A stretch of 64,000 nt of DNA, from assembly GCA_050575255.1 (NCBI GenBank), contig JBNZDD010013726.1:3045763-3109762 (forward strand), read 5' to 3'. The position numbers were made by a program, and so were the translations under genes. The notes beneath the pieces were generated by a model that ran no database searches, had not been told where the DNA came from, and saw only the letters and a program-made list of their open reading frames with translations. This document shows, piece after piece, positions 836 through 64,000 of the stretch (within the stretch, counting starts at the first letter, position 1; each line of letters starts with the position of its first letter). This DNA is from Harriotta raleighana (lineage: Eukaryota).

Positions 836-934
836 AGCATTAAGTGTAATTGTCAAAAAGAGGGCCACAGTACAAAAGGAGCAGTGGCTTCACATGTTGA
901 TAAGACTACCCAAACTGTCCACAAAGAAACTCAT
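836..934 (+). CDS. CCSER2: CCSER2 internal coding exon (99 nt, phase 0/0): SIKCNCQKEGHSTKGAVASHVDKTTQTVHKETH
   Basis: Pyrimidine tract plus cacag acceptor (831-835), donor CAT|gtaagt (935), open frame of 33 codons. DKTTQT matches the recalled human CCSER2 ADKYTQT segment just before the alternative C-termini. Confidence 0.85.
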
Positions 935-6810: not shown

Positions 6811-8811
6811 CACTTTATACAACTCTTGGTAGGCAAGTTTTCTTTCAATATGAATATTGAAAGAATACAGAAAACCTCTTCAGTTTCCCCCAACCCTCTC
6901 CCAGTACAGTAGTCTATCCACCTTTGTAAAGAACTTCTGAAACATTTGCTTATATGAAGATATTATTTACTTATATAAGGGCAAATGATTGTTAAACTGA
7001 AATTGTCAGTTAAATAAAATAACATTTGAGATTTAAGAGTCGTTTAATTCTTTTCAACAGCAATTGACAGGAAATGTATAATTGAAAATCTCACTTATAA
7101 TTTTTTTAAAAACTATTCCAATTATTGTTACAGATTTGCAATACGTCACGATTTGGAATTTAGATATTTATTGTTTGTTCAATCTGGTATTTTCTGTCGC
7201 CTGGGTAGAAACTATGAGGCATTTGTGAATTTGTGGAACAACTGCCCAGGGACTAGGAGGAGGCAGAGAGTATTAGACAGCTATTTAGTGAATAATTCAC
7301 TTGTGGGGTGTGATAAATGAATTAGAGTAGCTTTATTTGTTTTTCATCTAAAAAATAATAAGTTTGGCACCAAGCAGATGGAATGCCATGGTCTTGTCTA
7401 GTCCAATATGTCATTTGAGCAGAAATATTGGTGACAATAGATTAATGAATAGTGTATATAGCCTAATATACACACTCATTATATATATATATATCTGTTT
7501 ATTTGCGAGTGTAACTTGTACCAAGCTTGTATCATTGACAAATTATTTCTGGCTTCTCCAGAGTTGACATATTGAGGGATTCTGTAAATTACATGTTTTC
7601 TGTGTTTCGTCTGAATTAGAGATTCTGTATATTATGTATCTATAGATTAATACATCATTTTCACCATCCACATTGATATTGATATAGGTTGAAATTTTCC
7701 ATCTTGAGCATTGTATTTTGAGTGTACTGTCCTTGCGATTTGGAGCACCCAACAAAGTAGCTACCTGGGGTGCTGCCTCGTGCACTGACTTACATTTGTA
7801 ACAAATAACACTTAAATTTGAGGACGGCATTGGTGTTTCAGGTTATAATAATCATCGATATCTTCTGATTCTAATGTAATGTATGTACATTACATTAGAT
7901 TGTGTGGATTGTAGACAAGGTGTATGACTAGAATTTGCATAATTTTTTCTAGCATTTAGAAACATTATAAATCACAAGAGATTTTCTTTGGTGTATTGGC
8001 CTATTTTCTGCACTGGAAAAGTTCTCTGCCATTTATTCCCACATCTTCCTCACTTATACATCCGGCCAACAATACTACTGTACATCAGAAAGTACATTAT
8101 ATTCAGAAGTATTGAGACAATGAGATATCACATTATTCAAATGCCACAGAACTATGGGACACACGTTCACCTCCACTATTTATCTTAGTCACATTGCTTA
8201 GCAGAGTAAATCAAATACAGTTGTTCTCATACATCATGTCGCAACTGAATAAGAGGTTCTGTCAGAGCTGGTCACATTCGTTGTCACAAAACAATGCATA
8301 AGATAACAGACAACTTAGAATAGTAGGGAAAGATTGAAAATTTCAAAAGAAACAGCATAGCATAACAGGATCCGGGTTAATCCAATGCACTACTATATGA
8401 AGTGGTAGAAGCCTGAGCTGTAATGTTTGTAAGCAGTTTAGATTCACTGGTTCCTTTATTTAAATCTTACACTTACACTTTCTTCCACAACCTGGAAATG
8501 TTACTTGGATGTATCCTTATGGAGAAGTTGTTGCTTCTATTTCCCATGTGTGGGTTATGATCCATTTAAAATACGGTGTTACAAGTTATCTTTTTCTGCA
8601 GCAATTTTGTGTGACACCTATTAAAATGAATCATTTGAAAATTATAGGATATAGTTCTTTCTAAAGCAGCTCCTTAGCTGTTTTCAATTCCCAAAGGCAA
8701 TTTCACTGTGTGTCTGATTCTATCCAAATTATTCCTGACATAACTAGTTTATTTCTTTTTTTGTTTTTATACCTTCTTCCCTCCATTCCTTTCCCTCTCT
8801 TTCCTGCACAG

Positions 8812-8896
8812 GCTGGGCCCTCTGCTCCGTCCTCCTCTTCCTGGCAGGGTTTGTTCCAGAGGAATGCACGTCCCATCCAGCTACAACGCCGACCGA
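8812..8896 (+). CDS. CCSER2: CCSER2 85-nt cassette exon (3n+1, frameshifting): AGPSAPSSSSWQGLFQRNARPIQLQRRP+a
   Basis: ~60-nt pyrimidine tract, cacag acceptor ending at 8811, donor CGA|gtgagt (8897). The peptide resembles the recalled human short-isoform segment GGYSAPSFSPWQGSFQGIPRTVPPHRRQ. Confidence 0.85.
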
Positions 8897-10299
8897 GTGA
8901 GTTTAACACTCTACAATCAGACTTCTACAACACTGCCAGTAAACAAAGAATAAACTTGCTCTTGATCTTTAATCACAAATTACCCATGATTTGGGATACC
9001 TGATTAAATTCATAGATGTAACACAAAGACCCAATGCAATGCTGCAGCTTCCATTTGGGAATTGGTCTATTTTCATATTAATCCTGCTTGTTAGCTTAAT
9101 GATGTAAGCTGTTTTAGTGATGTTTATTACTTCTTACTAAATGTGACATTCTTTGAAAGATTTCAGCAGCGGCAGTCATGGGGAACAATAAGGTTACTAG
9201 AGTTGCTGTGCAGTTCATTCCAAGCTGTACTAATGAAATCATGACTTTTTTTTAAGAAACAATAAATTAGCTTTGTGGAAATGAAAAATACTCTTGCCAA
9301 GCACCTATCTGAAGGAACCAGTTTGCTCTCATCCTGCGAGTGAGATGGATTGTCGCGTTCAACTATTCTTGCCTGAACAGTTCATTTATTCAGAAGTCTA
9401 TTCTGTACAATGCAAGCAAGGGATACTTGCTGCACATTTTGGATTTTATTCTGTTCAAACTACGGGGGGAAAAAACTAATCCGTATAAAAACTTGCATCT
9501 ATATAATACCCTTAAAAGCAGGGTAGAACCTTTGACATAGCTATTAAGAACATAAAAAATAACAATTTACATTATTTATAATGTTAGTAACGTAAACGTC
9601 ATGTTTTAAGAAATTATAAGTGGTAAATTTTACTCTTATTTTAAGTGATTAATAGCAATACGTACCACCTTCAGCCCTTGTTAATCTTCCAAATAATATA
9701 CCTCTCAAATGGAGCATTGTCTTTGATGCTCTTGAACATCGATGAGATCAAAAGATTTCTAATAGTACCAGAGGAAAAGAGCACACCTTTCAGTTCTGAT
9801 TCCTTTTTTTGATTTGTCAGTGACTTTCATCATAATTATTTTGTTATCTATGCAAGTTTAAGATATTTGTTTGGATAAATTCTGGTGTCTCAGTTTGTCA
9901 ATACCCCTGTTTGCCAAGCCATATGATTTAATCGCAGAGGCAAACTGGCTTTTGCTGTAAAAAGAACAGGAAAGGGTAAAGATTGGTAAGTATTAGTAAA
10001 TTTAAATATTGTTTTTAATTGATTCTTTGGGTTATATTGTTTGGCACAAATTAATCTAGAAGTTGATATGACACTACTGTAATCTTTAACACTTCAGACA
10101 TCTCAACCTGTTATTGTATCACCATATTTTATTACACTGCAGATTATTAGCTTCGACATAATAGTCTGATTGGGTTATTCCATATAATAATCCAGAAATC
10201 TGATCAACTCCACTTATATATTTCTGATGGTAGGGTACCATCCAATAATGAGGTATCCTGATAATGATGCACTAATCGCAAAGATAAGTGATGTTGTGC

Positions 10300-10740
10300 A
10301 AATGGATGAAAGCAGATTTGGTCAGAGCCTGGATAAAAGGCTTAAACAGAAAGCGTAACAGATACCAAGATTCCCCGCAGGCTCCATGAGTAAGCAACTG
10401 ATACAGACAGTGCCTGAGCACTGGCAGGAACTGAGCAAAATACAATTTTGTCAACCTTGAGTTGGAGAATGTTAAGGCTCATACAGGACCTGATGCCTAA
10501 CAAACTTTTTTTCAGAAAGCAGTAGTCTAGAGTCGAGAGTGGAAATAGAAAGAGTGTCTTCTACATTTAGAGTTGGGTGTCTTGTACATGGAGTTGAAAA
10601 TGGATCCAGGTGATATCACTAATGATGAAGTAGGTGAGGAAAAGGAGAGGGCCAAGAATAGACCCCAGAGGAACACCACACATGGCAGGAGAAGCAAGCT
10701 GTTCAATGAGATGTAGTGAAGACAGATATCGATCTCTACT
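10300..10740 (-). mobile_element. Degenerate L2 RT fragment
   Basis: Reverse complement reads GVPLGSILGPLLFLTY and resembles 3490-3900. Confidence 0.75.
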
Positions 10741-12798
10741 GTAGAGACAGATAAGAGTTCCTCTGGCATAAATGTTGAAAGTATGAAAGAATTTGTGGGG
10801 TTAGATTATTATCTTTCATTGGTGAATTGGAAACAAAGCACTATACATAAACTCAAGATTATTACTAGAAGCATAGAGGGCAAAGTCAGAAATCATTTAG
10901 GATGTGGAATATTTTAGTATAAGAGGATACTGATACCAACTGAATTGTGTCACTTTAAATGGACTTGGATAATTATGTAACTACTACCACTGATATAAAA
11001 GCTTTGGGAAATGGCAAGAATTGGTGTGAAATAAATATAATAAATGGTTCTGGAAAGACAGAATGCTTTAGCTTCCTATAAACTGGCCATATAAATAATG
11101 TGAAAGTTGTTGGATGTGACAGCTTTTAAATTACTAACCTCAAGCACCAGTGTGCTGGGACATAGGTCCTGCCCACCAATTCCCACACACTGAATTCCTG
11201 ACTACAGTCATGCTTACAGCAGGGAGTAACAAAGTAAAGACTTGGTACTTATCTTAGGACAAAAAAGAAGAGTTTGTTCCCAACTTTTGATGTACCTTTC
11301 AGCCTCACACCAAAGGCTAGTGAGCACTTGTCTGTGTCTATACCAAGTGTTTTATATATTTTTGAGGGACAATTTAAGTGCTTGAAGGATATTGTGATAA
11401 TTTGACTGAAATAGAAGTATAGGAATAATCAATTTATGTTTCAAATGAAAAAATTAACAAATTTTTCAAAAAACATTAAATATTAAATCAAAGGTATGTT
11501 CAGATAAAATCTAAAACCCTTTCAATACGGAGGCTTGTTGTCTTGTTCTCAGAGGCACTATGAAATTAAGGCAGTCATATGAAGAAGACTATGTGGAACA
11601 TTACATGAAATCTCAGCAAAAAGTTTTGAATAGCGCTGAGGAATTTTATCATTGAAGCAGAAATGATAAAGGATGGAGTGTTAGCAGTGAATTCCTTTCA
11701 GGAGCATTATGTTCGATTAAGATAAAGAATGGGAAACATAAAGAGGAGGGGCAATAAATAATAAAACTAGATTAACACTAAAGCAAAAGAAAACCCACAA
11801 AATAAAGAACTGATTAATTAATTCTCATGACACATACAGCTACTACAAAGAAAAGTTGTGACCACAAAAGATTACAACCAGTGAAAAGGAATTATCTTCA
11901 TGTGTCATTAGATAAATTATAATTTATAGATTTAATTCAACTCCCAAGATTGCATTAATGCAATATAGAGTCTTATTATTAATGCTATTATAGCAGGTGT
12001 TAATCCAGGTTGGCTAGTGGCCCTTGGGAATAAAATAATCAAGAGAATAATATCAAAGAAAAAATCAAGATGAGCAAAGAGATACCAATACCATTGGAGA
12101 AAAAAATAGTTATATGTTAATGTGAATCTTGTATACACGATGAATGAATATATGCGAAACTGTTTGTTTTAGTAATCTTTCTTTATGTTTTTGTCATTTG
12201 TATACATGCAAGAAAAATTCAACAGAACAATAAGTAATTGTCATCATGATCTGGGAGCACCTGATAGTCTTAGATTATAGTACTTTAGACACAGTTCTAA
12301 TACTACATTGCAAAAAGATGATTGAAGTAATTGCTAGTCAGCTCAGTTGTGGTGCACATTCACAAGGATGCTAACCAATAAATGAGTCCATTAAAATCAA
12401 ACCAGCATTAGTAATAGAAAGCAAAATAGGGCATATTGCTCATATGAAGACTATAAGATGAGCTAGTGCTCGTTAATCGTGAATCTTAATGCGTATTCAT
12501 GGTTTTATCTCTTGCTTTCACGGTGGTGGAACAACAACAACAACAAAATTAGGTGTGGAACTTGGTCTTCCTAATGGAAATAAATATGAGTGTAAAAAAC
12601 ATCAAAAGTACAGAGATACATTGATCAAAAAGATTCTTCATCTTGCTGTCGGCCTCTGTGTCCAGCAGATAAAGTATGTTTGGGCCAATATTATCTTAAT
12701 GATGGACTGTCTGACTCTTAAATGTTTTAATGAAAGAAACCAAGACTGGTGATCTTTGAAATATTTCAATACTATCCATTATACGGGTATTTATAGTT

Positions 12799-12968
12799 AA
12801 TAATAATCCTTGCCATTTGATATAACTCCTTATCATGTCATTGAGACAGCTCAAAGGTTTTCACAGAATATAATGTAAAATGAATTGACTATATTTTGTA
12901 GGTAAACAAAGCAGTCAATTGTGCCCAGCAATGTCCCATAAATAGCTGTGGATTGAGTGACCAATTTT
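12799..12968 (-). mobile_element. tRNA-SINE 3' half
   Basis: Reverse complement of the SINE body and tail seen at 1850-2011. Confidence 0.8.
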
Positions 12969-13199
12969 TTAAATTAATCGAATGATCTAATTGAAGGGTT
13001 CATGAGATTCATTTATTAGATAATAAATCACAAATTACTTTGAAATGGAACTTGATAGATGCTTGGTTGAAAGAATAATAAAGTGTATGGAGACCAAGCA
13101 GGCAAGTGGGATTAAACTGGGACAAAAACTCCTCCAACAAACATGATACCCGCATGTAACATTTTATGATCATGCAGCTATTTCTCATTCGCCTGGGTG

Positions 13200-13830
13200 T
13201 TTTGAATGATTGTGGAGACCAAACAAGTTCTGTAAAGTAAAAACTGGTAGTTGGCACTGGAACTGACATGGTCTTTACCTGAACGTGTAAGGAAAGTAAT
13301 AGTTGTAACTATATTGGAATTCAGGGTGTTGCAAAGTCATGAATTATTTGACCTGTTGATGGAGATTTCTTCTCCTCTGCCAATCCATTGTGAAAATAAT
13401 GCTGAACTCTCCTTTGATATTCTTTGTGCAGTATCCATTCTCATACTTTGCCACAAAGCCAACAGGTATTTGATGGAGTACGAGGGGGAGAAAGGGGTTT
13501 GAATTACTCTTCAATGGGCTCTTTCCCAGAAAATAGTTCACGCAATATTCTGTCTTGAATAACACATAAAAACAGACTTTGGTTGAGTTCCAGCAATAGT
13601 CACACTTGTAAAAGTGTAATTCAGAATGATAACTGCCTTCAAGATAGGAGAGGAGAAAATTGATAGGAAAAATAAATCAAAATGTGTAACATGATTCAAG
13701 TTTAAGTGACTCTCCACAGGCCACTCATAAATGTCTTCTCTGATGTGAAGGATGTACCCTAACACTTCTGTCATAAGATTTATGAGACTTTCATCTTCAT
13801 GAAGTAACACATATTCAGTGTTTACCAACT
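13200..13830 (-). mobile_element. Highly degenerate Penelope-like RT fragment
   Basis: Minus-strand remnants NYF...GFVAKYE, CNTLNSNI and TITFL lie in the order expected for Penelope RT (NYF...LFVGYxE...N..PNIKFT...IxFLD). Confidence 0.4.
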
Positions 13831-14667
13831 ACTTCTTTTAATTAGTCATATTCTTGTAAGCAATTTCTGAATAAATCAGAACTGTTTGAACTGTTCAAAT
13901 GTCAATTTTTATTTGTTTTTCAAGTGCATACTTAAGTGTCCAAAGCTAGAATGTTGTTATGTTATTTGTCACATAATGACTTGTACTCAATAAACATAAT
14001 CCCAAGAGATTTTATATAAGTAGCCAATCCTAATTTACTTGTTTGAGTTCTACTGTAGGAAAATTTTCAAAAGTGAAATTTGATTCACCATTTCAAGAAT
14101 TGAGTCAAAGACTCTGGATAGATCGAGTTCCTGTCATTTTGTGCGTCTAACTTCAAACCGAATGACCATTTACAAAAGGGATTGTGACCCTGAAACCATT
14201 CATTTGCTGTAATAGAACCATATAAACATTCAAAGTGCAATAGTCATTCTGTATCTAGTCAGAAATTGTAATTAGAGGTACTCCGTTTCATTGTTCTGAA
14301 AGACATACTCCATGGCAATTTCTGACCTATAAAATGGAAGTGTTTTAATTTTTCATTATAGATCATTATTATTATGATAGGTCAGTAGCAATCACATTTC
14401 TGTAATAAAGTCTAGTATGCAATTTACTGTCAGCAGAGGTGTGCTGTTAGCAGATTTCTCTAGAGTTTGATTCTGTAATGCTATTTTCTATTATAAAATA
14501 TGGAGAACATTTTAGCACTAATATATAAGTACCTAGAACAATTTCAATTGTATATCATCATTCCTCCAGTTTTAAATGATGGGTGTTGTTGGATATTAAT
14601 CAAAAACAAGTGCCTTGTGTAATTTTCATCCTTCAACCACTGCCTCCAGTGGGTATTACGTTACACA

Positions 14668-14715
14668 TAATAATAATCTTTGCATTTAATACAGCACCTT
14701 ATCATTTTGTTGAGA
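14668..14715 (-). mobile_element. tRNA-SINE tail fragment
   Basis: (taa)n tctttgcatttaatacagcaccttatca...aaagtgcttcacag. Confidence 0.65.
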
Positions 14716-16193
14716 TGTTTCAAAGTGCTTCACAGGATACACTGGTGGGATGGTGTATTGTATTGCCTTCCCCACATGTTTGCATCTATGTTGATGGGTC
14801 CTGACTTTGCCTCATGGGACTCACCAAAGCATGAACTAAGATAGTATTGAATGGGCAAAGATAGTGTTTAGATTACTGCCATACAGTATAGATGATGTGT
14901 AAGTAATTGGGCACATCTATACCAAGAACATTGAGTAAAAATATGATTAGAATGGGTTATGTTTTTGCAGGTAGCATTGATTTAATTTGCAGTTTTTTCT
15001 GCCATGTACAACTGCATTCTAAATCATTTTTTGGCAAACGATCAACTTTCTGAATCTAGAGAGATTTCTGAAGAGCCAGAATGCTTTGTTCACAGAAAAT
15101 ATGACATACAATTCTGCAGAGCAAAATTGAATTTCAGATCAGATGCCAGAGGCCAATATGTGTGCAGCAGTGAAGACATGGCTCCAATACTAATCGAATA
15201 TTAACTGCTGACTCGAATCGAATGTAGGTGCTGTATGGAATGATGAAATTGCTGTGATACTTGTGATTCATATACAACTGACATTATAATTGAAAGTGGA
15301 AGACAAATGTTACCAATATGCTAATCTTAGTAACCCAATTTAGTCAATAATTTATATTAAAATCTGTGTAGTGTTCTGCTAATTATGAGGCCTGAATAAT
15401 TTAGGCTTATTACTCAATAACTTAAAAATGAAAAGAAAATTTATTTGAATATGTGGTTTGAATTTGCTGCAATTGGTTTCATAAATATGAAAATGTACTA
15501 GTATTTTAAGGTTACAAAACAAATTAGACACAAATACGCTAAGTTTGTAAACATAAGGTAGCATTATGCAATGGAGTACCAAATAATTGTACAAGAACCT
15601 GATGGAATGGAGTTTTACTCCTGAATTTCAAAACAGGAGAGTTTCTAAACTTAAATAGTTTGTCAGAGGGCAAAATAGGGAGAATGAATAGGTCACACTG
15701 CAGTCAATTTGCCTCCCAATATGGAGGGACACTAATTCTAAGTCACTTTCACATTTCTTTGCTTGATTATTCATAGACTGGACTAGCAGAAGTTGAGGCC
15801 AGGCCTTCAATAACTATTAGCCAGAGAATAACATTTAGTGTGATTTTAAAAACGGATGTTAACTTAGAAGAATAATCTAGGTGATACTAATTAAAAATTA
15901 TAATCAGATCCAAACACTTTCCTGGCACACATTTTATATCGAAACATTTTAAGAATCCATGCATTTGATAGTGCTTTTTGTTTCAGGACTATGTCCGAAA
16001 GCGCTCCAAAAGCTTTCAAAGTTTTTAAAGATTCACAGGTTTCTATGAAAACACTAGAATCTAGTGAAGAGAGCTGGTTTCTTGGGAAGCTGATGTTGGG
16101 ATTGATTGAGAAGTTCAGTCCACAGAGGACCATATCATACCTAAACCATGGATGATGACATGTCTAGATGTTGTTTGATTGTAATAACTTATC

Positions 16194-16872
16194 CAGACTG
16201 ATCCAACCAGCAGCCCACAGGCTGCATCAGGCCAGGAGGATGATTTCATCTGACGTACAAATATAGTCATACTGTGTGTCTGGAGCCCAGGTCTGGTCTG
16301 ACGCTGTGGGAAAATCACTTTCAAACTGGTAACGGGAGAGAAAGAGAGAGAGAGAAACAGAGACAAGACAGAGAATTACAGAGACACAAAGATGGTTACA
16401 GAGACAGATAGATTCAGAGACANNNNNNNNNNNNNNNNNNNNNNNNNNNNNNNNNNNNNNNNNNNNNNNNNNCAGAGACAGATAGATACAGAGACACATG
16501 CATACAGATAGAAAGAGACAGATGGACAAAGAGACAGATGCAGAGACAGACAGATTGACTGACTGACTGACTGACTGACACAGAAACAGACACACCCAGA
16601 TACAGAGAGACACACCGAGACAGATATTCATAGCTGGTTGTATTATTGTTTCAAAATTTCTATGAATTTTTACATTGTTTAAAGTTTGCATTCTAACTAA
16701 AATTTAATGAAATTAAGTAATACAATTACACAATTAAAAATCTAGGATTTCTATATGATCTTTGTGGGGTAGGTTCCTGGAAAGGAAATACTAAAATATT
16801 GCTCATGGAACCCGGGAGTGTTTCTTAAATCCGGTATCCTGCCCTCAGCAGCGAAAAGGTTGGACCACCCAG
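16194..16872 (+). mobile_element. Non-autonomous hAT (Charlie-like) DNA transposon with an internal GA-rich repeat
   Basis: Imperfect TIRs cagactgatccaacc / ggttggaccacccag; subterminal gcagcccacaggctgcatcaggcc and gccctc...aaaaggttgg typical of hAT-Charlie ends. Confidence 0.5.
16335..16625. repeat. GA/GACA/GACT simple repeat containing a 50-N gap (16423-16472)
   Basis: Directly visible. Confidence 0.95.
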
Positions 16873-16873
16873 C

Positions 16874-17142
16874 CTTATGATAGAGGTATTCAAAATTCGA
16901 TAGGATAAATAGGGAAAAACTGTTCAGCATGGCAGTATTATTAGGGTGTAGAATGTCCTAAAAAGCATGGGTGAAACATAATCTATAAGAGCTTTAAACA
17001 GGAAGTTGTCAAAATATTTACATTTTAACAAGTATGGGGAAAGAAAACAGAATTGAGACCCAAGTGGATAGCTCTTCCAGGGAGCTGGCAAAGGCACATA
17101 GAACTAAATAGCCTCCTGTGTTGCATAAATTCTATAATTTTA
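16874..17142 (+). mobile_element. CR1 LINE 3' fragment
   Basis: atgatagaggtattcaaaat...agggaaaaactgtt...aaatagcctcctgtgttgcataaattctat. Confidence 0.65.
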
Positions 17143-18187
17143 TACATTTCTATTTGCATTCACAGATAATTTACACTTGTAGTGTGGCATTCTATGTTTT
17201 TGGTAACCAAAGCACCACATGTCTGCTACTTCATTCACCCAGCTGCACACACTTAATTTACTTACAAGTACCATCCCTGGGGAATTGGAGTTGTGCCACT
17301 AAGCAGCTAGATTCACTTTGATGGGCCCATCATAATGCATGTTGAATGCTGTTCTGGCTCCCGTGTAACACGTCTGCATAGCAACTAATGCAGTGTTGAA
17401 TTGCTAACTTGGATAGTGTCTGGAGGCCGATTCTAAGTAATTCTCTGTTGCCATATACTAGGAATTTTGTGTTAAATTCATGCTCCTAGTGGCATGAAGT
17501 CAACATGAAATGACTAGGTAAAAGTATTTCTTCATGAATCCATCCACTGTATAGAGAAAGAAGTTACATTTTTGCACATATATTTGACTCAGAAATGCTC
17601 AAGAGTTGCAGAAAGAATGTTCAAATGGATTCTTGATTCAGTTTTGCACTTGTCCAAGCTGCTGAATAAAAAATTCCTCACATTCTGAAAGTTTTCATTG
17701 AAATTCCATGCTGAAGCTTGCAAGAAGTGATGTTTTGGTAGGGTAGGTTTGATTATCCAAGCTTAAAACAGGATTTTTTTTGTTATCTAAATGCTTTGCA
17801 GAAAAATTGCAATAACAATATCAGGAAAACAACTGCTTCCATTGCAATTTCTTTGTAATGAAGGGCTTTTAAGATGCAAGTCAGTTGACAAAAACATCTA
17901 AAATGTTTTAGACAGATTACTAAGACATAGTGAAATACAATGAATGAACGCTGAATACCTTTCATAGGCTTTTATCATTTTTAAATTTTTAACATTTACT
18001 AAAAAGGATTCAGAATCACTGTTGCCCCTGGATGACGATGTGTTTGTTGTAGAATGTCATAGACTGATTGACAGGTGTGAGTTTGCAGTGGGATTGACAA
18101 CCTGTAATTGTGACTAAAAGTGCAGCTCAAAGTCACACCAACAGGATTGTAGGTGTACGTTTGAAGTGGAAATATTGCTCTGTGATT

Positions 18188-18255
18188 GCTTGGTTGGTTG
18201 GTTGTGGGGGGGTTGGTTGGTTGGTGGGTTGATTGGTCAGTTGGTTGGTTGGTTG
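18188..18255. repeat. (TTGG)n microsatellite
   Basis: Directly visible. Confidence 0.9.
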
Positions 18256-18584
18256 ATTATTGATCAGAAGCCATTCTGGCAGACGCACACACAGATGTAA
18301 TGAGAGGTCACACTTTGATTGTGCATTGCTGAGTGAGTAACCATAAGAGTGATATTCAGCATGCTCGGCAATGGGAAACACACTTTGAGATCATTGTGAT
18401 TTAGTGTGCTTTTAATGGACATGATTCTCATGAGAGATGAACACACAATCTGATTGTGTTGGTGGTACCATTCTGTGAAGGGTAGTCATGTGCTTTGCTT
18501 GGGGTAAAAGAGAGTAAGTGACAAATTTCTTAGTGGCAACTTCCCTCACGAGAATCCTGCATGATGCCACCTCCCCACTCAAAA

Positions 18585-18653
18585 ATATTGTATATTCTGT
18601 GCAGCGCTTTGAGACAGCTAGAATACATGAAAAGCTCTATATCAAATGCAAGG
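18585..18653 (+). mobile_element. SINE tail fragment
   Basis: gtatattctgtgcagcgctttgagac...ctatatcaaatgcaagg. Confidence 0.7.
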
Positions 18654-19087
18654 CAGTCCTAGTTAAATATTTTCTTTTAAAAAAGAACTTGCAGTCACAT
18701 GTTTTATGATATTGACTGACATTATATGGGTTAAGCTTCTGAACAAATGTATTTAGGGAAAAAAACATTGCAATGACCTGCATTTTTAAAAAAACGTAAT
18801 TTATGATAATCCACAGCTTCTTATTTCCAATGAGTAATACATTCAAACTATTTGATGTCAACAATTTAGCAGGAGGCTTTTATTACAATGTGCTGGCTTT
18901 GAAAGCTGAGAAGCAGTGGACAGTCAAAATAATTAATCTATCATCCACATATGCAATATGAACTGTAAAATATTTATGGTTTAGGAGAAATATTTCATTT
19001 GTGAAGCCCAAGGATTTTCCCCTCGCTCCTTCATGCTGTTTTATAGTCAAAAGCATCTGGAATAAGAGACATCATAATGAAATTAGA

Positions 19088-19214
19088 TGATGTGCACAAT
19101 TGGCATACCACGTTTCATCCACAAAATATAGTCAATTCACTTTACAGTATATTTTGTGAAGTGCTTTGAGATGTCTAGGAGGTGATATATCAAATCCAAG
19201 GATTATTATTATTA
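19088..19214 (+). mobile_element. tRNA-SINE 3' fragment
   Basis: Matches the SINE tail and ends in (att)n. Confidence 0.8.
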
Positions 19215-19479
19215 TGCTTAGTCTCAGAAAGACCCTTGCTCCTTCTGAAGATTCCAGGTTATTAAAGAGGATTAAAGTTTCTTTGTAAATTATAGTACCT
19301 TTGTACATTTTTCAAAAAGTGAAATCCTTGTACATAAGAAGCTTAAAGAAAGATGGATCCCCTGTGATACTTTTCATTAGTTGAGGAGGTTGATTAAATA
19401 AATAAAAGAACAACTGGAAATGATTTAACTATTACCATAGAATTTAAATTGCGGAGCTTTACAACATGCAAAGCGATGG

Positions 19480-19735
19480 CACTTTATGAGTTTCTAACCA
19501 GCCAGGAGGAGTTGAAGACGTTGCCTACAAGGATGCTACCTTTTTGCCGTTGCATCAAGATTGCATTTGAAGAAAGCCTAGGAGTAGTCTGCCATTCCTT
19601 ATCAGTCGCAAGAGGTGTATAATACGGTGAGAGGCAACAAGAGAAGAAAGTAGTCATTTCCATTACAGCTGTTTGTGGAACACAGCAGTGCGCAAATTGA
19701 CTGCCACATTCACCTACAAAATACACAATCACTAA
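19480..19735 (+). mobile_element. Degenerate Deu-domain SINE fragment
   Basis: gctgtttgtggaacacagcagtgcgcaaattgactgcc plus upstream Deu-like remnants. Confidence 0.45.
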
Positions 19736-20360
19736 ACTTTTTGTGCGCAACATCGTGTTTATTTGTAGTCAAATATATCAGAGACTTAATAAACTGCATT
19801 GTTGCATCGTGCTGCTAATTTCTGAATGAAGTCGGTATTGCATTAGAAAAAGGGAACTATACTAAAAGGTGCAGTTCCTAGGAAGGAGATCCTGTGTGCT
19901 GAACAGATTATCACAAAGAGCATCGCTGAGTATTAACCACAGAACTGTCAAACCTCCCTTTTTTCACTGCTAAATTAAACAGGTCGATCGGCTTCCAATC
20001 TATCTCACAGATCAATCAGCTTCCAATCTATTTTGATTATAAATGTTACTCCCAGCATTTTCCACAGCTCTTTGAATAGTTAATTTGCTAGAAGAGCTCA
20101 GTGTGCTCTACAGTGCATTAAAGAATGAAACTTCTACAGGCCAACTAAAGAATATATTATGGTTATTAAGAAAATCTTTACGGATTATCTTTCATTAGGA
20201 AAGGGAAATTATATAGATTAAAATTAATTAAGTTTTTTTATATAAATTAAAATGTTATCCAGTACTCCGAATTAATTGATGTAATTCATTGGTTTGTTTG
20301 TAAAGTCACTGTCCATTTCCTTGTCTTCTTTGTCTCTCCCTATCCATTACCTGATGCAAG

Positions 20361-20400
20361 GATTTGAGGATGTTGTCCATTACTTCTATGATAAAGCGTG
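20361..20400 (+). CDS. CCSER2: Candidate 40-nt alternative exon of CCSER2 (3n+1)
   Basis: AG-free, pyrimidine-rich stretch 20306-20358, TGC just before the aag acceptor, weak donor GTG|gtacag, and three TGCATG within 66 nt downstream. Open in both usable phases: DLRMLSITSMIKR(A) or (R)FEDVVHYFYDKA(C). Confidence 0.55.
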
Positions 20401-20434
20401 GTACAGTACAGTTAAATAATATTGCACTGCTGCC

Positions 20435-20639
20435 TGCATGTTGCATGAGTGACAAAATCTTGCATGTATTGTTAATCCTACACGGCAGAATTATATCAAT
20501 GTACGATGAAATTTTACACAAATTGTATGTGCTTTTTATGTGCAATACACAAGCATGCAAATATACCTATATATGAAAACAAAGTAGTTAAGTCTAAGAT
20601 TTCCTGTGAACTTAATCACACTATAAGCTCCACTGCATG
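20435..20639 (+). promoter_or_regulatory. RBFOX (TGCATG) intronic splicing element cluster
   Basis: TGCATG at 20435, 20442, 20461 and 20634; GCATG at 20553; immediately downstream of the candidate exon. Confidence 0.6.
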
Positions 20640-20669
20640 AAGCAATATATTTTGGTCTCCAGCACCCCC

Positions 20670-21005
20670 TTCTATGTGATTCAGCTATAAAAATAATAAA
20701 GGAATTAACAGGTTAGATGGTGGATGCCTCTTCGGTTTGATAGAGGGATTCATTGCAAGGGACAGAACTTTCAAATTGGAACTGTTAAAATTTAGTTCAG
20801 CTAACATTTATTCACAGAGTGTTATGAAACTGTGGAATATTTTGCCCCAGAAAGCTGTTAAAGGCAGAATCAATAGCGGTATTTAGAAAAGAGCCAGGTG
20901 ATAGAGACATTATCTTGAAAGGACAAGGCAATGGGATTAAAAGATCTTTCAAGATCAAATAAATTGGTGAAACTGGTTTGAAGGGCCTAATGTACCTATC
21001 CTACT
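20670..21005 (+). mobile_element. CR1 LINE 3' fragment
   Basis: ttcacagagtgttatgaaactgtggaatattttgccccagaaagctgt...gaagggcctaatgtacct (F..RV...WN.LP remnant plus CR1 3' UTR). Confidence 0.7.
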
Positions 21006-24000
21006 TGTTTGTTCAGGTAATGAGCACAATTCACTGACATTTTCACCTCACAGTTGATATCTGAAACATGTATTCAATTGAGTCACTTGCCTCATTCAGT
21101 GATATGTGTTCATTATCTTGTATAATACATACAGACAGTGAGTTAATATATTACAGTATATTGAAGATTCCTACTGATTTATTCATGCAGTCTTGTGCTT
21201 ACTGAGCAATTCTACATCTGGGAGGAGCACAGAGGATAATTTCAAGTTACAGTAAAGATTTGGATTGGGATATAGCAGAATAATGAGGACAATTCCAGTA
21301 GATCTGGAGCATTCCATGAATTTGTGATCTTTGAAAATGTGGCGTTTTTCAGGAATTTGCTGGTGCCACAAAAATGTCATAAATGCATCAAAATACATTT
21401 TTATTTTACACGATTTCACAAAATTAACAAAGATAAATGCGTTTTGAAGAAACACTTTGCTCATACGTCAAATATAAAATACTAGTGACAAGAAAATCCT
21501 TAGTTTTTAGTTGAGTCATCATTTAGCAATTTATATCCTCCAAAGAAGAAAAACATTTGGAAGAAATAATTTTGGCATCTTCTTGTGCAAAGTCTCATTC
21601 TTAGCACCTAGAAATTGACATTAGCGTGGCAGTAAGTTATGTCACTATTCATCTGATACCCAGATGTGGAACATTTGTTATGGATAAGTATCAATTTCAA
21701 AATGCAAGGATGATTATTACAAGTAAATGTTTTAAAACGTCGAAGAAGTTAACCAACAAAAAATGGTCAATTTCCACTAGCCTTAAATACAAACTGGCAG
21801 GCAAAACCAATCTTTGATTTTTCTAGAAGCAGTGCAGATTAATATAAAACCCACAAAATTTAATTTCAAGCACCTTACCTTGGTGTTTAAAACGGATACA
21901 TAAGTGTTAAAATAATTGGTCAATTATTATTGCCCTCGAGTATATGTATAGAATATAAATTATATACTTTCAGGTGGAACACACTCAAGAGATTTTTAGA
22001 AAAAAAATATCTGTTCATTAAAACAGGCTTTTGATGTTAGATTTAAATTTTCTTAAAATAATACCTTCATTAATTTCTCCCTGCATGGAGCTTTTTTTCA
22101 GTCCCAACAGTTAAACTCAACAGGCTGTTAATTTACAGAGATAAACTCAGGATAGATGGAATGTAGCTGTCTGTTGGTTTAATTTTAATATGTCAATATT
22201 AGTTTACATTCATCTCCTCTGTGATTCAACCTCTGTGTGATGTGTTAAAATTGTGCATGGGCACAAAGCTTGCCTAAAAAAAACGGCCATAACAAACTTT
22301 CAGCTAATTTAACATATATTATTATTAACCTACATTTTTGTCTTTGTTTCTATGGTTTTAAATGAATAGGATTGTGCACATCATTCGCAAAATTTCTAGG
22401 TTATTACCATACCCAATAACATTACAAGTACTCGAATTATAGCAAGTACGAAATTCATCTCCATCAAAATCATTCATTTCCATGATATATGTCTCCTGTA
22501 GTTGAAGAGAAACCTTAAAATCAGCTAAGGTTCCCATTCATTCCCAATGATGCCAATTGTATCCAACTATGTTGGGTGATGAGTGAGTTGGAGTCTGCAG
22601 TCATGCTTTCATGGCCAACTAGCTTACCAACATTAACTATAATATGAGGTATGGCCACATAGGATTTACAGAAGTCCCTGCAATGGAACTCACTAAAGCA
22701 CCCAAGTACAGGAGCCAAGCTCCTGTTTAAGCAAATCTTCCTCCCTAAAGTACTGTACTTCTTCAGAAAAAATATTCTCCTGATTTTTTTTTGATGGATT
22801 ATTCTTTGTAGGTTTCACCTTTAAACAATTGTTTCTACTGTTTTATGGGAGATTGCCTGGCATGATTGCGTACAGAATTAATGTACACAGTTACAATTAC
22901 ATGATTATCAAAGTGCTGCAAGTTAATTACCACATTTATTTAACTCCTCAATGATAGCTCAGCAAATTCACCAAGCAGTTCTCACCTTTATTCACGCTTT
23001 ATAAACAGATGCTCCAATAAAAATCAACAAACAGATGAAATAAAGATGTTAAAGTTAGTGATCCTGTTTTTTTAAAGCACACTTAAACCAAAATTTCTAT
23101 ATCATCCAATATAATATAAATATGCAATTATAAATCATTCTGATTGTTGGAATTGTTGATTCTAAAAATCTGATGTATAGGTTAACTGTTCATAGTGTCA
23201 CTAAAATGTTTGGGCTTATGTTAAATCACACTATGAAACCTTCTATGATGGCATGCTATCTATATGCATAACTAAATTAATGCACAAATCTCCATTAATT
23301 GGCAGCAATATAGTTAAATTTTATAATAATAAAGAGACAGATTTTTTAAAACTGCACTATAGTTTTTTTTAAAGTTTATTTATACTATAGTCCATGCATT
23401 TATTCGAATACTAAAACCCATCTATGATTGTCTGGGAAGGTGTATTCTGAATTGAATTCATGTTGTTTTAAACCCGATTTATACTGCACTTTTAGCTTTC
23501 ATTTGATGGGAAATCAGAAACAAATCTATGCTTAACTGCAGTGCTCTTTGCAGTTTATGATGTTAACTGAGATATTTGATCGTTACCAAGGTGTAGCTTT
23601 TATTGAATGTTAGAAGAGTTTGACATGGTTAAACCTTTTACTTAAGCTTGATTGAGTGCACTCTTGGTATAGTAATGAATTGTTAATGAATAGATATCGA
23701 AAGTCCTATATAAACAACTTTTTTGATGGAAAACTATCCAAATAAAATATAAAGATTGTAACTGGCCTTTTAGGATATGTTTGAATGAGAGGCTGTGTGG
23801 CCAATTTATACCAATGAGGTTGGACTAAAAGACCACCCGAACTTTTCATCTTTACTTTCTGGTTAGGTATCCATAGATATCTATGCCTATTATTGCTAAA
23901 ATATTCCTAAACTCTCTCACTGGATGGTATTTTAGTAGTCTATGTCATAGCATTCTAAATCACAGTTTATGTTTATCTCTGCACAAATACCATTAGCAGA

Positions 24001-24184
24001 GATGTCTTAATGTTAATTCGAGCATATAAATTTATTACTACCAAACCTGGTTAATCTATTTATGGTGGTCAATGGCTAGGTAATTTATACGCAACATGCT
24101 TGTATGAGACAAGCAGAGAAGTGGCAAAGCTTTGTGTAACAGAAGGGTTGAGTGAGTCGCCCACCATAAGTGGAAAAGTTTACT

Positions 24185-24480
24185 CGAGATAAGGAGCAGA
24201 GAAATGAGAGAGAATCAAGCAGGATGAGTTTAGGGATGGGTTACAAGGTGCTCACTGCAGAGGCTGGGTAAGGATAGGAGTGAAAACATTCCAGCAGAAA
24301 AAGGGAAAACGTTGCTTGGGGAATAGCAGTTGAGTGTCGAAGATTGCCAAACGTTCACTTTTGAGTTGTAAAGTGACAAACTTTGTAAGAGGAAATGAGC
24401 AATTTAACATGATTGCTGTATTAAAACCACATGGAAAAAGAAGGAAAAACTCCTCCAGGAGAGGAGAGAAATTCACAGGT
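24185..24480 (-). mobile_element. Degenerate L2 ORF2 fragment (pre-RT region)
   Basis: Purine-rich; reverse complement resembles the ...TPILK..LDP...NYRPIS.LPxL region. Confidence 0.4.
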
Positions 24481-24850
24481 AACAATAACCCCAGACATGT
24501 TATCTTATGGTAGAATTTTCAGCTAGACAGAAAATATTCATATTACTGTACTAGTTTTTTTTTAAAAATTTCCACCATCCATCTTGTATGCTTCATCCTC
24601 GAAATAAGTGCCACAGTTTTAAATGTTCCTGTGTGATTTGCTTCAAAATGCTTTTGTTTCTCAATCAAATGATTATGTTGCTTTCATCCAGTGCCCATAC
24701 CTTCTTCTAGATTTTATTCATGCATGGTCTTTAGAAACAAAATAAAGTAGGATGTCCTGGTGATTGGACAGGTTTGGTCTTAGAAAAGTGCTAAGTATAT
24801 GTAAAAGTATGCGTAAAAGTGCTCTAACATGGCTTTTCTTCTTCCATCAG

Positions 24851-24945
24851 CCTCCAGTACTACAGCCTTCCAGCCACACACTCAGCTCAAGCGACTTCCA
24901 CGTGGAAAAACTAGCAAAAACAGTGCAAATCGAGGACCCCAGTAG
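24851..24945 (+). CDS. CCSER2: CCSER2 terminal exon, overlapping short-isoform frame: (T)SSTTAFQPHTQLKRLPRGKTSKNSANRGPQ*
   Basis: Frame reached after a 3n+1 exon; TAG at 24943-24945. Matches the recalled human short tail TSSTTAFQQPSQTHRSHPGKTNKATTYRGPQ in length and both ends. Confidence 0.85.
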
Positions 24946-25795
24946 GTGTATGGAGCAAGCTACGTACGAAAACTGCCAAACCAATCAAAATACAAAAGTT
25001 ACTGATTCCCCACAGATGGATTCAGACAAGCTTAGCTTTCTTTTAGCCTCACAGTTGAAGATGGAAGATTCTGATGAAAATCTTCCAAAAAGCAAAGTGC
25101 ACAATACAGGCAAGCAGATTCTAAATATTCCGCCTAACTTTTCATCTAAGGAACAGGCTTCTTNTGGTCCTAATCAGGCTTCTTTGCAGCAGATCTGTAT
25201 CGCTGGACCTTTGGAATTCACAGAGGAAACCATAAATAAAGACTCTCAGCCCACATTTTCCTTTAGACAATGTCAGCCTTCTAAGGATTTAAATATTGCA
25301 TCCCAGAACTTGTCTTCACGATTGCCATCCCCTTTATCCGTAACAGCTAGAAAGAATGCTCCAATCACTCAAACAAGTCCTTTACCTACAAAATGTCCAG
25401 TTCAACCATCCGGACATGGCCCGAAAGAAAAGGGTCATCATTCTCAGTTAAAAATACCCTTAAACCAGTCAAACCAAAACAATGAACAAAAGAGAAACTC
25501 TAAACTACCACCATCATTGTATTCATCACTTCTAAAGACTAAGATTGCAGGGCCCTTGATTGAGTCTGGATCACCAATCAGAGAGATTCAAAATGCTGAG
25601 GCAACTCGTCACCAGAATGAGCCCCATTTTCAGTTTCTACCAATAAACAAGCCACAGAAACCCCAATCATCCCGAAACGACCGTCCTGGACAACAGCGTG
25701 AATCCCAGATAGAGAAAATGGCAACTTCCATCAGATATTCTCGCCTTCCTAAACCAAAGATGCATGTGTCCAACTCCTCAAACTATAGTTTTTAG
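24851..25795 (+). CDS. CCSER2: CCSER2 terminal exon, long-isoform frame (314 aa, PPVLQPSS...RYSRLPKPKMHVSNSSNYSF*)
   Basis: Acceptor ttttcttcttccatcag (24850). Longest ORF in the window, S/P/Q-rich. Its start and end match the recalled human PQVLQPSS... and ...RYSRLPKPKIH. Confidence 0.9.
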   Translation, partial: PPVLQPSSHTLSSSDFHVEKLAKTVQIEDPSRCMEQATYENCQTNQNTKVTDSPQMDSDKLSFLLASQLKMEDSDENLPKSKVHNTGKQILNIPPNFSSKEQASXGPNQASLQQICIAGPLEFTEETINKDSQPTFSFRQCQPSKDLNIASQNLSSRLPSPLSVTARKNAPITQTSPLPTKCPVQPSGHGPKEKGHHSQLKIPLNQSNQNNEQKRNSKLPPSLYSSLLKTKIAGPLIESGSPIREIQNAEATRHQNEPHFQFLPINKPQKPQSSRNDRPGQQRESQIEKMATSIRYSRLPKPKMHVSNSSNYSF

Positions 25796-52155: not shown

Positions 52156-52468
52156 TGGAGTACTGTAGTTTAATGATTAGAGCACTCACCTTGCAAGTGA
52201 GAAGACCCAAGTTCAATTCCTAGCCAGGGCGAAATATTGGGCAGGTTTCCTTAATCTTCATGCCTCTATTCACCAAGGAGTAAGTAGGAACCTGTTTGTT
52301 AGTCGATTGGTTGATCACTTTCCCGACTGAGATAATCGACGACTGTTTGTGGGACACTGCTGTGCGCAATTGGCTGCCATGTTTCACCCATAAAATATAG
52401 TCAAGTCACCTTACAGTATATTCTGTGAAACACGATAAGGCACCATGTTAAATGCAAGGATTATTATT
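52156..52468 (+). mobile_element. tRNA-SINE, full length (long-body variant)
   Basis: A and B boxes, body, (att)n tail. Confidence 0.9.
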
Positions 52469-53922: not shown

Positions 53923-54280
53923 AGAGCCCTGTAGCTCAATGGTTGGAGCACTCATTTTACAAGTGAGAGACCTGGGTTCAATTCTAGGCAGGGCGAAATC
54001 TTGGAAAAGTTTCCTTAATCCACATGCCTGAAATAAATCTCTCAAAAAAATAATAAATTGGTCATTTCAATCCATGACTGTTTGTAGATCACTGCTGTCT
54101 GAAATTGGCTGCCACATTTCACCCACAAACATGCAGTCAATTCACTTTACAGTATATTTTGTGAAACGCTAAGAAGACATGAAAAGCTCTATGTCAATCA
54201 ATCAATCAATCCATATTACATTTATATAGCGCCTTTCACGTCGGGAGGATTTTCACGTCAAATGCAAGGATTATTATTAT
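53923..54280 (+). mobile_element. tRNA-SINE, full length, with an inverted L2 tail inserted near its 3' end
   Basis: A and B boxes and body; insert ~54198-54256 flanked by gtcaa. Confidence 0.88.
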
Positions 54281-63768: not shown

Positions 63769-64000
63769 TGGAGTCCTGTAGTTTAGTGGGTAGAGCACTC
63801 GCCTTGCAAGCCGGAGACCTGGGTACAATTCCAGGCAAGGCAAAAACCCTGGGTAAATTTCCTTAGTCCACATGCCTGAAAATAATCCCTTGGGGTGGGG
63901 CGTGGCAGGGCAAAAAAAAAAAATTGCTCATTCCAATCCACGACTATTTGTGGGACGCTGCTGTGCGAAATTAGCTGTCACGTTCCACCCACAAATATTC
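63769..64000 (+). mobile_element. tRNA-SINE (cut by the window end)
   Basis: A and B boxes and body. Confidence 0.88.

Follow-up and report, generated by a model that had tools for sequence, protein, structure and literature searches.

A triple-coding last exon of CCSER2 in the chimaera-like fish Harriotta raleighana and a likely splicing switch of its C-terminus

Can one terminal exon be read in more than one frame, and have the different readings been kept by selection as protein since the ancestor of the jawed vertebrates? This question is raised by a stretch of 64,000 nucleotides (nt) of the genome of Harriotta raleighana (contig JBNZDD010013726.1), referred to here as the window, in whose coordinates all positions on the + strand are given. 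Judged by its sequence, the window is the 3' part of CCSER2 in this chimaera-like fish. The original prediction described a dual-coding last exon, the frame of which is controlled by a frameshifting cassette exon of 85 nt; the frameshifting cassette stands, but the exon is in fact triple coding, as the prediction had missed a second cassette of 40 nt that gives access to the third frame. The two cassettes, exon A and exon B, determine which frame of the last exon is used, and they probably act as a switch that keeps or removes a long tail with C-terminal EB1-binding SxIP motifs.

The naming of the gene, made by likeness to human CCSER2, proved correct. In a protein search with the long tail, a single match was found among 1687 candidates, i.e. 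the CCSER2 of Callorhinchus milii with 83% identity; the tail diverges fast. All the named protein matches of the tail and the upstream exons are CCSER2 and none is named CCSER1, the remainder being unnamed predicted proteins. Furthermore, the C. milii isoform of 836 amino acids (aa) has 10 matches in order on the contig of the window, which cover residues 1-836 with 69-94% identity, and seven of the matched stretches lie upstream of the window, including an intact coiled-coil region; together with the match of the tail, these ordered upstream matches therefore identify the window as the 3' part of CCSER2. Of the three stop-free frames of at least 150 aa in the window, the long one is the longest, and the long tail has a single match in its own genome, with no second copy. 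A weak match to CCSER2 residues 529-566 (E 0.002, 53%) was noted on another contig, at C13625:904367-904480, and is possibly CCSER1. Pfam assigned no family to the long tail, to either short isoform or to two intronic open reading frames.

The splice sites of the original prediction, the 85-nt length of exon A, the 314-aa product of skipping, the product of inclusion ending in RGPQ and the 95-nt overlap of the long and RGPQ frames all hold in the sequence (Table 1). The donor after the upstream coding exon E0 lies at 934/935 (CAT/GTAAGT), the acceptor of exon A at 8811/8812 (pyrimidine tract and CAG), its donor at 8896/8897 (CGA/GTGAGT), and the acceptor of the last exon at 24850/24851 (pyrimidine tract and CAG). 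When exon A is included, 59 aa follow E0, ending in RGPQ, with a stop that ends at 24945. Exon B was located by tblastn using the C. milii isoform of 839 aa, which carries 13 additional residues past the 85-nt exon and continues in a different frame of the last exon. Inclusion of both cassettes shifts the frame by two and yields a tail of 62 aa with a stop at 24914, so that three coding frames overlap in 24851-24914 and two in 24915-24945, and the stops of all three forms lie within the same, last, exon. A tandem donor (GTACA GTACAG) is found at 20401-20411; exon A joined to a 45-nt exon B would lead back to the RGPQ frame, and such a 45-nt form is present in one catshark model (P0139). The base at 25165 in the long frame is N, and around 25156-25165 a related fish (run X1, see below) lacks 9 nt and C. 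milii lacks three residues, which points to an in-frame insertion in the long tail.

Table 1. Exons, reading frames and motifs at the 3' end of CCSER2 in the window
Feature	Position	Strand	Remarks
Upstream coding exon E0	836..934	+	99 nt; phase 0 end; AG/GT ends; matches C. milii residues 744-779; common to the three forms
Cassette exon A	8812..8896	+	85 nt (3n+1); moves the last exon to the RGPQ frame
Cassette exon B	20361..20400	+	40 nt (3n+1); pyrimidine tract; AG/GT ends; with A gives the third frame
Possible 5-nt extension of exon B	20401..20405	+	tandem donor GT at 20406; use in this species predicted from sequence
Last exon, long frame (A and B skipped)	24851..25795	+	314 aa; stop ends at 25795
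Last exon, RGPQ frame (A, or B alone)	24851..24945	+	junction codon and 30 codons; stop TAG
Last exon, third frame (A and B)	24851..24914	+	junction codon and 20 codons
SKLP, SxIP-type match	25499..25510	+	long tail; also in C. milii long model P0001 at 992
SRLPKPK, conserved C-terminal SxIP-type motif	25739..25759	+	long tail only

Do these frames correspond to known proteins? C. milii is a separate, related species with about 11-17% protein divergence from the window, and its CCSER2 models XP_007895613-5 include all three isoforms (1089, 836 and 839 aa), the tails of which are 84-90% identical to those encoded here (262 of 312 residues for the long tail, 53 of 59 for the RGPQ tail and 56 of 62 for the third). 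As they match annotated isoforms, the long and RGPQ products are not due to chance. The peptide of exon A is identical to that of C. milii in 27 of 28 residues and to those of tetrapods in 13-14 of 28; for the internal residues of exon B the figures are 12 of 12 and 7-8 of 12, respectively. The part of the last exon read in the RGPQ frame shares 25 of 30 residues with C. milii and 17-18 of 30 with mammals, and the part read in the third frame shares 15 of 20 with C. milii and 9-12 of 20 with tetrapods.

Beyond C. milii, we took a census of 240 distinct vertebrate sequences, many per species and therefore not independent, most of which are predicted XP_ models built partly on homology. It comprises 82 long, 93 RGPQ-frame and 32 third-frame sequences, along with 28 without the anchor motif and five others. 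The RGPQ-frame tails have 30 last-exon codons in 85 of 93 cases and end in RGPQ in 79, and the third-frame tails have 20 codons in 31 of 32; the position of the RGPQ stop is thus conserved, as had been claimed. The long, RGPQ and third forms are all seen in skates, sharks, frogs, alligator, horse and rat; among the few teleost sequences the third frame was not seen, and herring has only the long form and an RGPQ form whose tail is one codon shorter. The proposed jawed-vertebrate age of the frameshifting arrangement is borne out by these forms, shared from cartilaginous fish and herring to mammals, and on the evidence of the models the triple-coding arrangement is conserved in distant orthologues. 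No human protein was among the homologue matches, and the link to human is made through other primates, rat and horse and through the exon tables of published papers. Some mammalian models (P0096, P0110, P0172, P0176) lack E0, which may also be a regulated exon.

The stop codon of the RGPQ frame is TAG in all 14 cartilaginous fish and TGA in three of four tetrapods, at the same codon, and the change from TAG to TGA accompanies a long-frame change from R to E. At 24943-24945 the TAG overlaps the S-R codons of the long frame. The long forms of tetrapods have S-E at this place, two shrew-like ones N-E and one frog S-K, all pairs still able to spell a stop; the long form of X. laevis has R-K, and its RGPQ frame reads through.

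What, then, would the switch change in the protein? An SxIP-type motif closes 74 of the 82 long forms. In the window, two more SxIP-type matches are found at 25316 and 25376, both of which are absent from P0001. SRLPKPK and SKLP are of the S/T-x-I/L-P type and stand in a basic low-complexity region; the C. milii long tail has an isoelectric point (pI) of 9.5 and no Pfam domain. In rat, the long form has four SxIP-type matches, three of them in the tail with the conserved terminal one among these, and each short form has one, which is N-terminal. EB1 binding and comet formation have been shown for human CCSER2 (PMC10486078; 10.1101/2024.06.13.598865). According to the available passages of these papers, Shirai et al. 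used a human construct with the long tail (its reverse primer encodes the long C-terminus), in which deletion of two C-terminal SxIP regions abolished microtubule binding (PMC10486078), and Zang et al. described four CCSER2 motifs, mutation of four or two of which reduced tip tracking, and mapped NDEL1 binding to CCSER2 residues 657-687, upstream of the switch (10.1101/2024.06.13.598865). In the mechanism that we consider probable, all three forms would be spliced in this species, and the short ones would evade junction-dependent decay and become proteins because their stops lie in the last exon. Inclusion of A, or of A and B, would then remove the motifs of the tail and weaken EB1-dependent tracking of the plus end, while the short forms, with the coiled coil that binds NDEL1 and the N-terminal SxLP retained, would still act on NDEL1-dynein.

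Several observations weigh against this mechanism. The short forms of C. milii retain three N-terminal SxLP matches, and a CCSer2 mutant without any SxIP motif partly rescued knockout cells in the available text of Zang et al. (10.1101/2024.06.13.598865); given both, the loss of motifs may not be the point of the switch. In the part of their report available to us, Tress et al. state that the functions of the isoforms are unknown (10.64898/2026.05.28.727796), and the examined passages of the cell-biology papers do not compare the frame-shifted forms. Moreover, no spliced or junction read from H. raleighana itself was seen.

The short tails might instead have a positive function of their own, in which case the peptides encoded by the two cassettes, like the basic RGPQ tail, would serve in binding or targeting and the loss of the long tail would be secondary. 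We regard this as a serious possibility, though one that falls short of an even chance. The peptides of exon A (13-14 of 28) and exon B (7-8 of 12) resemble their tetrapod counterparts more closely than the long tail does past the overlap (65-73 of 283), the RGPQ tail has a pI of about 12 and lacks acidic residues in C. milii as well as in rat, and plain truncation would need neither two distinct short ends nor a fixed length. On the other hand, no Pfam family falls on the short isoforms, no partner of theirs is named in the examined passages of the papers, and alligators tolerate the loss of the last nine residues. This explanation is compatible with the removal of EB1-binding motifs that we favour; the short tails, which are conserved and basic, may act in their own right as well.

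If the three forms are proteins, the overlap would be constrained because its first 20-30 codons serve all three tails. Its bases were inferred from peptides for 18 species chosen for having long and short forms, which fixed 23-30 of 32 codons. In the long frame, identity to horse is 15 of 31 in the overlap versus 66 of 283 beyond it. Over 10 taxa with bases derived from isoform trios, 13, 9 and 17 of 30 sites are invariant at the first, second and third codon position of the long frame, respectively, a count that ignored ambiguous bases and to which these may add a few. The wobble position of the long frame is thus the least variable in the overlap, the reverse of an ordinary exon. Likewise, four-fold sites have the same base as the window in 6 of 6 cases in horse, 6 of 6 in porcupine, 5 of 5 in alligator and 5 of 7 in frog. 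In a simulation that held the long frame only, mammals, skate and white shark showed significant identity in the RGPQ frame at codon retentions of up to 50% (p <=0.023); synonymous saturation is expected between chimaera and mammals.

Other results speak against selection in more than one frame. The simulation was non-significant for all six tested species at 70% codon retention, significant for frog only at full synonymous saturation (p 0.001), and never significant for alligator (p >=0.05). An excess of RGPQ-silent changes was significant in only one of five species (horse, 14:4, p 0.03; compare frog, 8:8), and in the relative X1 the DNA differences amount to 1 of 95 in the overlap versus 12 of 385 beyond it (p 0.48), a comparison in which 15 of 18 differing letters are listed. 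The overlap with the third frame is nearly fixed by the other two frames, so that a third-frame signal there would not be separable from theirs. The homologues of the census were retrieved with an RGPQ-frame query. Nor is the RGPQ stop absolute, as six alligator sequences end nine codons early and the RGPQ-frame tail of X. laevis runs 11 codons further, and one frame is reported as broken in bats in the available text of Tress et al. (10.64898/2026.05.28.727796).

Some of these results would fit selection of only the long frame, or of only one short frame, as protein, with splicing signals or RNA structure constraining the start of the last exon and the other frames hitch-hiking. The invariant bases do cluster in the first 25 nt past the acceptor, and in the simulation neither the alligator at any setting nor any species at 70% codon retention reached significance. 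However, a second conserved block, at the RGPQ end, lies 75-95 nt into the exon, the position of the stop has been held through turnover between TAG and TGA, the cassettes keep 3n+1 lengths (85, 82 and 40 nt) and conserved peptides, and Tress et al. report human peptides from each of the three frames (10.64898/2026.05.28.727796); we therefore consider the single-frame explanation improbable. As for the claim that the 95-nt overlap is constrained in two frames, the low variability of the wobble position, the conserved four-fold sites and the turnover of the stop speak for it and several non-significant tests against it; on balance, multi-frame constraint is supported by the sequence comparisons, on small counts.

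We take human isoform 1 (Q9H7U1-1) to be the RGPQ form. That the cassettes are poison exons, which lower CCSER2 output through mRNA decay, is very improbable: both bring a frameshift and an early stop and make the 3' untranslated region (UTR) about 850 nt longer, but the early stops lie in the apparent last exon, which also ends the long form, and so are not placed as nonsense-mediated decay (NMD) stops are (although an intron in the 3' UTR is possible), the peptides of the exons are conserved, and Table S1 of PMC13160074 marks the human region no_NMD and gives Q9H7U1-1 as the canonical entry, supported at the protein level.

Pointers to how the choice among the three forms might be made come from relatives and from motifs near the exons. 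Run X1 comes from a related fish that is about 92-95% alike; its genomic contigs run through the exons without any splice joint, and it is thus uninformative on splicing. Long forms were found on skate-like Logan contigs of ~4 kb and RGPQ forms on Logan contigs of 2.7-7.2 kb; for both forms there are proteins known from such contigs alone, which are presumably spliced transcripts, because the gene spans more than 100 kb here. For all three rat isoforms, Logan is among the listed sources. Four copies of TGCATG, presumably an RBFOX-type element, stand at 20435, 20442, 20461 and 20634 (20435-20639), within 240 nt behind exon B, three of them no more than 70 nt from its donor. Nowhere else in the 64,000 nt do four copies fall within 300 nt (two overlapping positions of a sliding window out of 1274; the Poisson p is about 4e-6). 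The cluster came to light after several motifs had been examined, and it suggests RBFOX-driven inclusion of exon B, which would likely be promoted in neurons or muscle. Three more copies lie at 1447-1579, about 510-640 nt downstream of E0. The counts of CAC, YCAY and YGCY near the exons are within the intron background and so point to no RBPMS, NOVA or MBNL site cluster.

In human CCSER2 the 40-nt exon follows the 85-nt exon, and both of these exons as well as the orthologous 82-nt zebrafish exon are listed in Table S7 of PMC9770155 as RBPMS2-dependent skipped exons, changing in opposite directions. In the available part of a chicken paper, inclusion of the exon chr6:1739585-1739670 is said to yield the full-length protein, the reverse of the sequence here; a regulated exon of such a size is only a hint. 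The mouse name 'Gcap14 A85' was considered for the 85-nt exon and rejected, since it is drawn as a 485-aa isoform. Among literature titles, in a search that left subscription journals mostly uncovered, none concerned RBFOX control of the 40-nt exon or an isoform-specific function of CCSER2. A more far-reaching and tentative reading, which we consider rather doubtful, is that the cassettes form an ancient three-position dial, with which RBPMS- and RBFOX-type factors set the number of EB1 motifs by tissue and hence whether the activation of NDEL1-dynein is brought about by growing microtubule ends or elsewhere, the TGCATG cluster behind exon B having made the third frame a neuron or muscle form since the ancestor of the jawed vertebrates.

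Elsewhere in the window, an Rfam scan found only four tRNA-like matches, on the + strand at 1718-1789, 52165-52224, 53925-53996 and 63772-63843 (32-50 bits), which are possibly the heads of tRNA-derived short interspersed elements. Contig depth also marks intronic high-copy repeats at about 12500-13300, 14500-15100 and 18100-19900.

That CCSER2 is triple coding, and how old this arrangement is, has already been published, and all three isoforms have annotated models in a related chimaera. Tress et al. 2026 describe the triple coding throughout the jawed vertebrates and report, for each of the three frames, peptides and a low ratio of nonsynonymous to synonymous substitution rates (dN/dS); the gene is one of their two headline cases and belongs to a set of 90 dual-coding regions kept in jawed vertebrates (10.64898/2026.05.28.727796); Goubert et al. 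list the human region as DCR 361 (PMC13160074 Table S1). Human CCSER2 (FAM190B, Gcap14) is the orthologous gene, with one exon in three frames, three C-termini and the same cassette lengths of 85 nt and 40 nt (82 nt in the zebrafish orthologue of exon A), and there is no difference in kind between it and the window. The differences are of detail: the long tail is longer here (314 aa) than in rat and horse (262-272 aa), the RGPQ frame ends in TAG here instead of TGA, and mammals have an extra in-frame insert of 16 residues after exon A that was not recognised here. SH2B1 and NDEL1, described in the same preprint as the CCSER2 triple coding, are comparable systems in which an upstream cassette shifts the frame of the last exon and swaps the C-termini, with selection in more than one frame (10.64898/2026.05.28.727796). 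NDEL1 is a partner of CCSER2, although the sequences of both genes are unrelated to it, and the functions of the SH2B1 isoforms, unlike those of CCSER2, have been tested.

The locus is thus a rare specimen of one exon selected in three frames for more than 400 million years, an age taken from the available text of Tress et al. (10.64898/2026.05.28.727796). Beyond the known triple coding, the lead that it offers for the biology of CCSER2 is a possible isoform-specific control of plus-end tracking, together with the TGCATG cluster behind the 40-nt exon.

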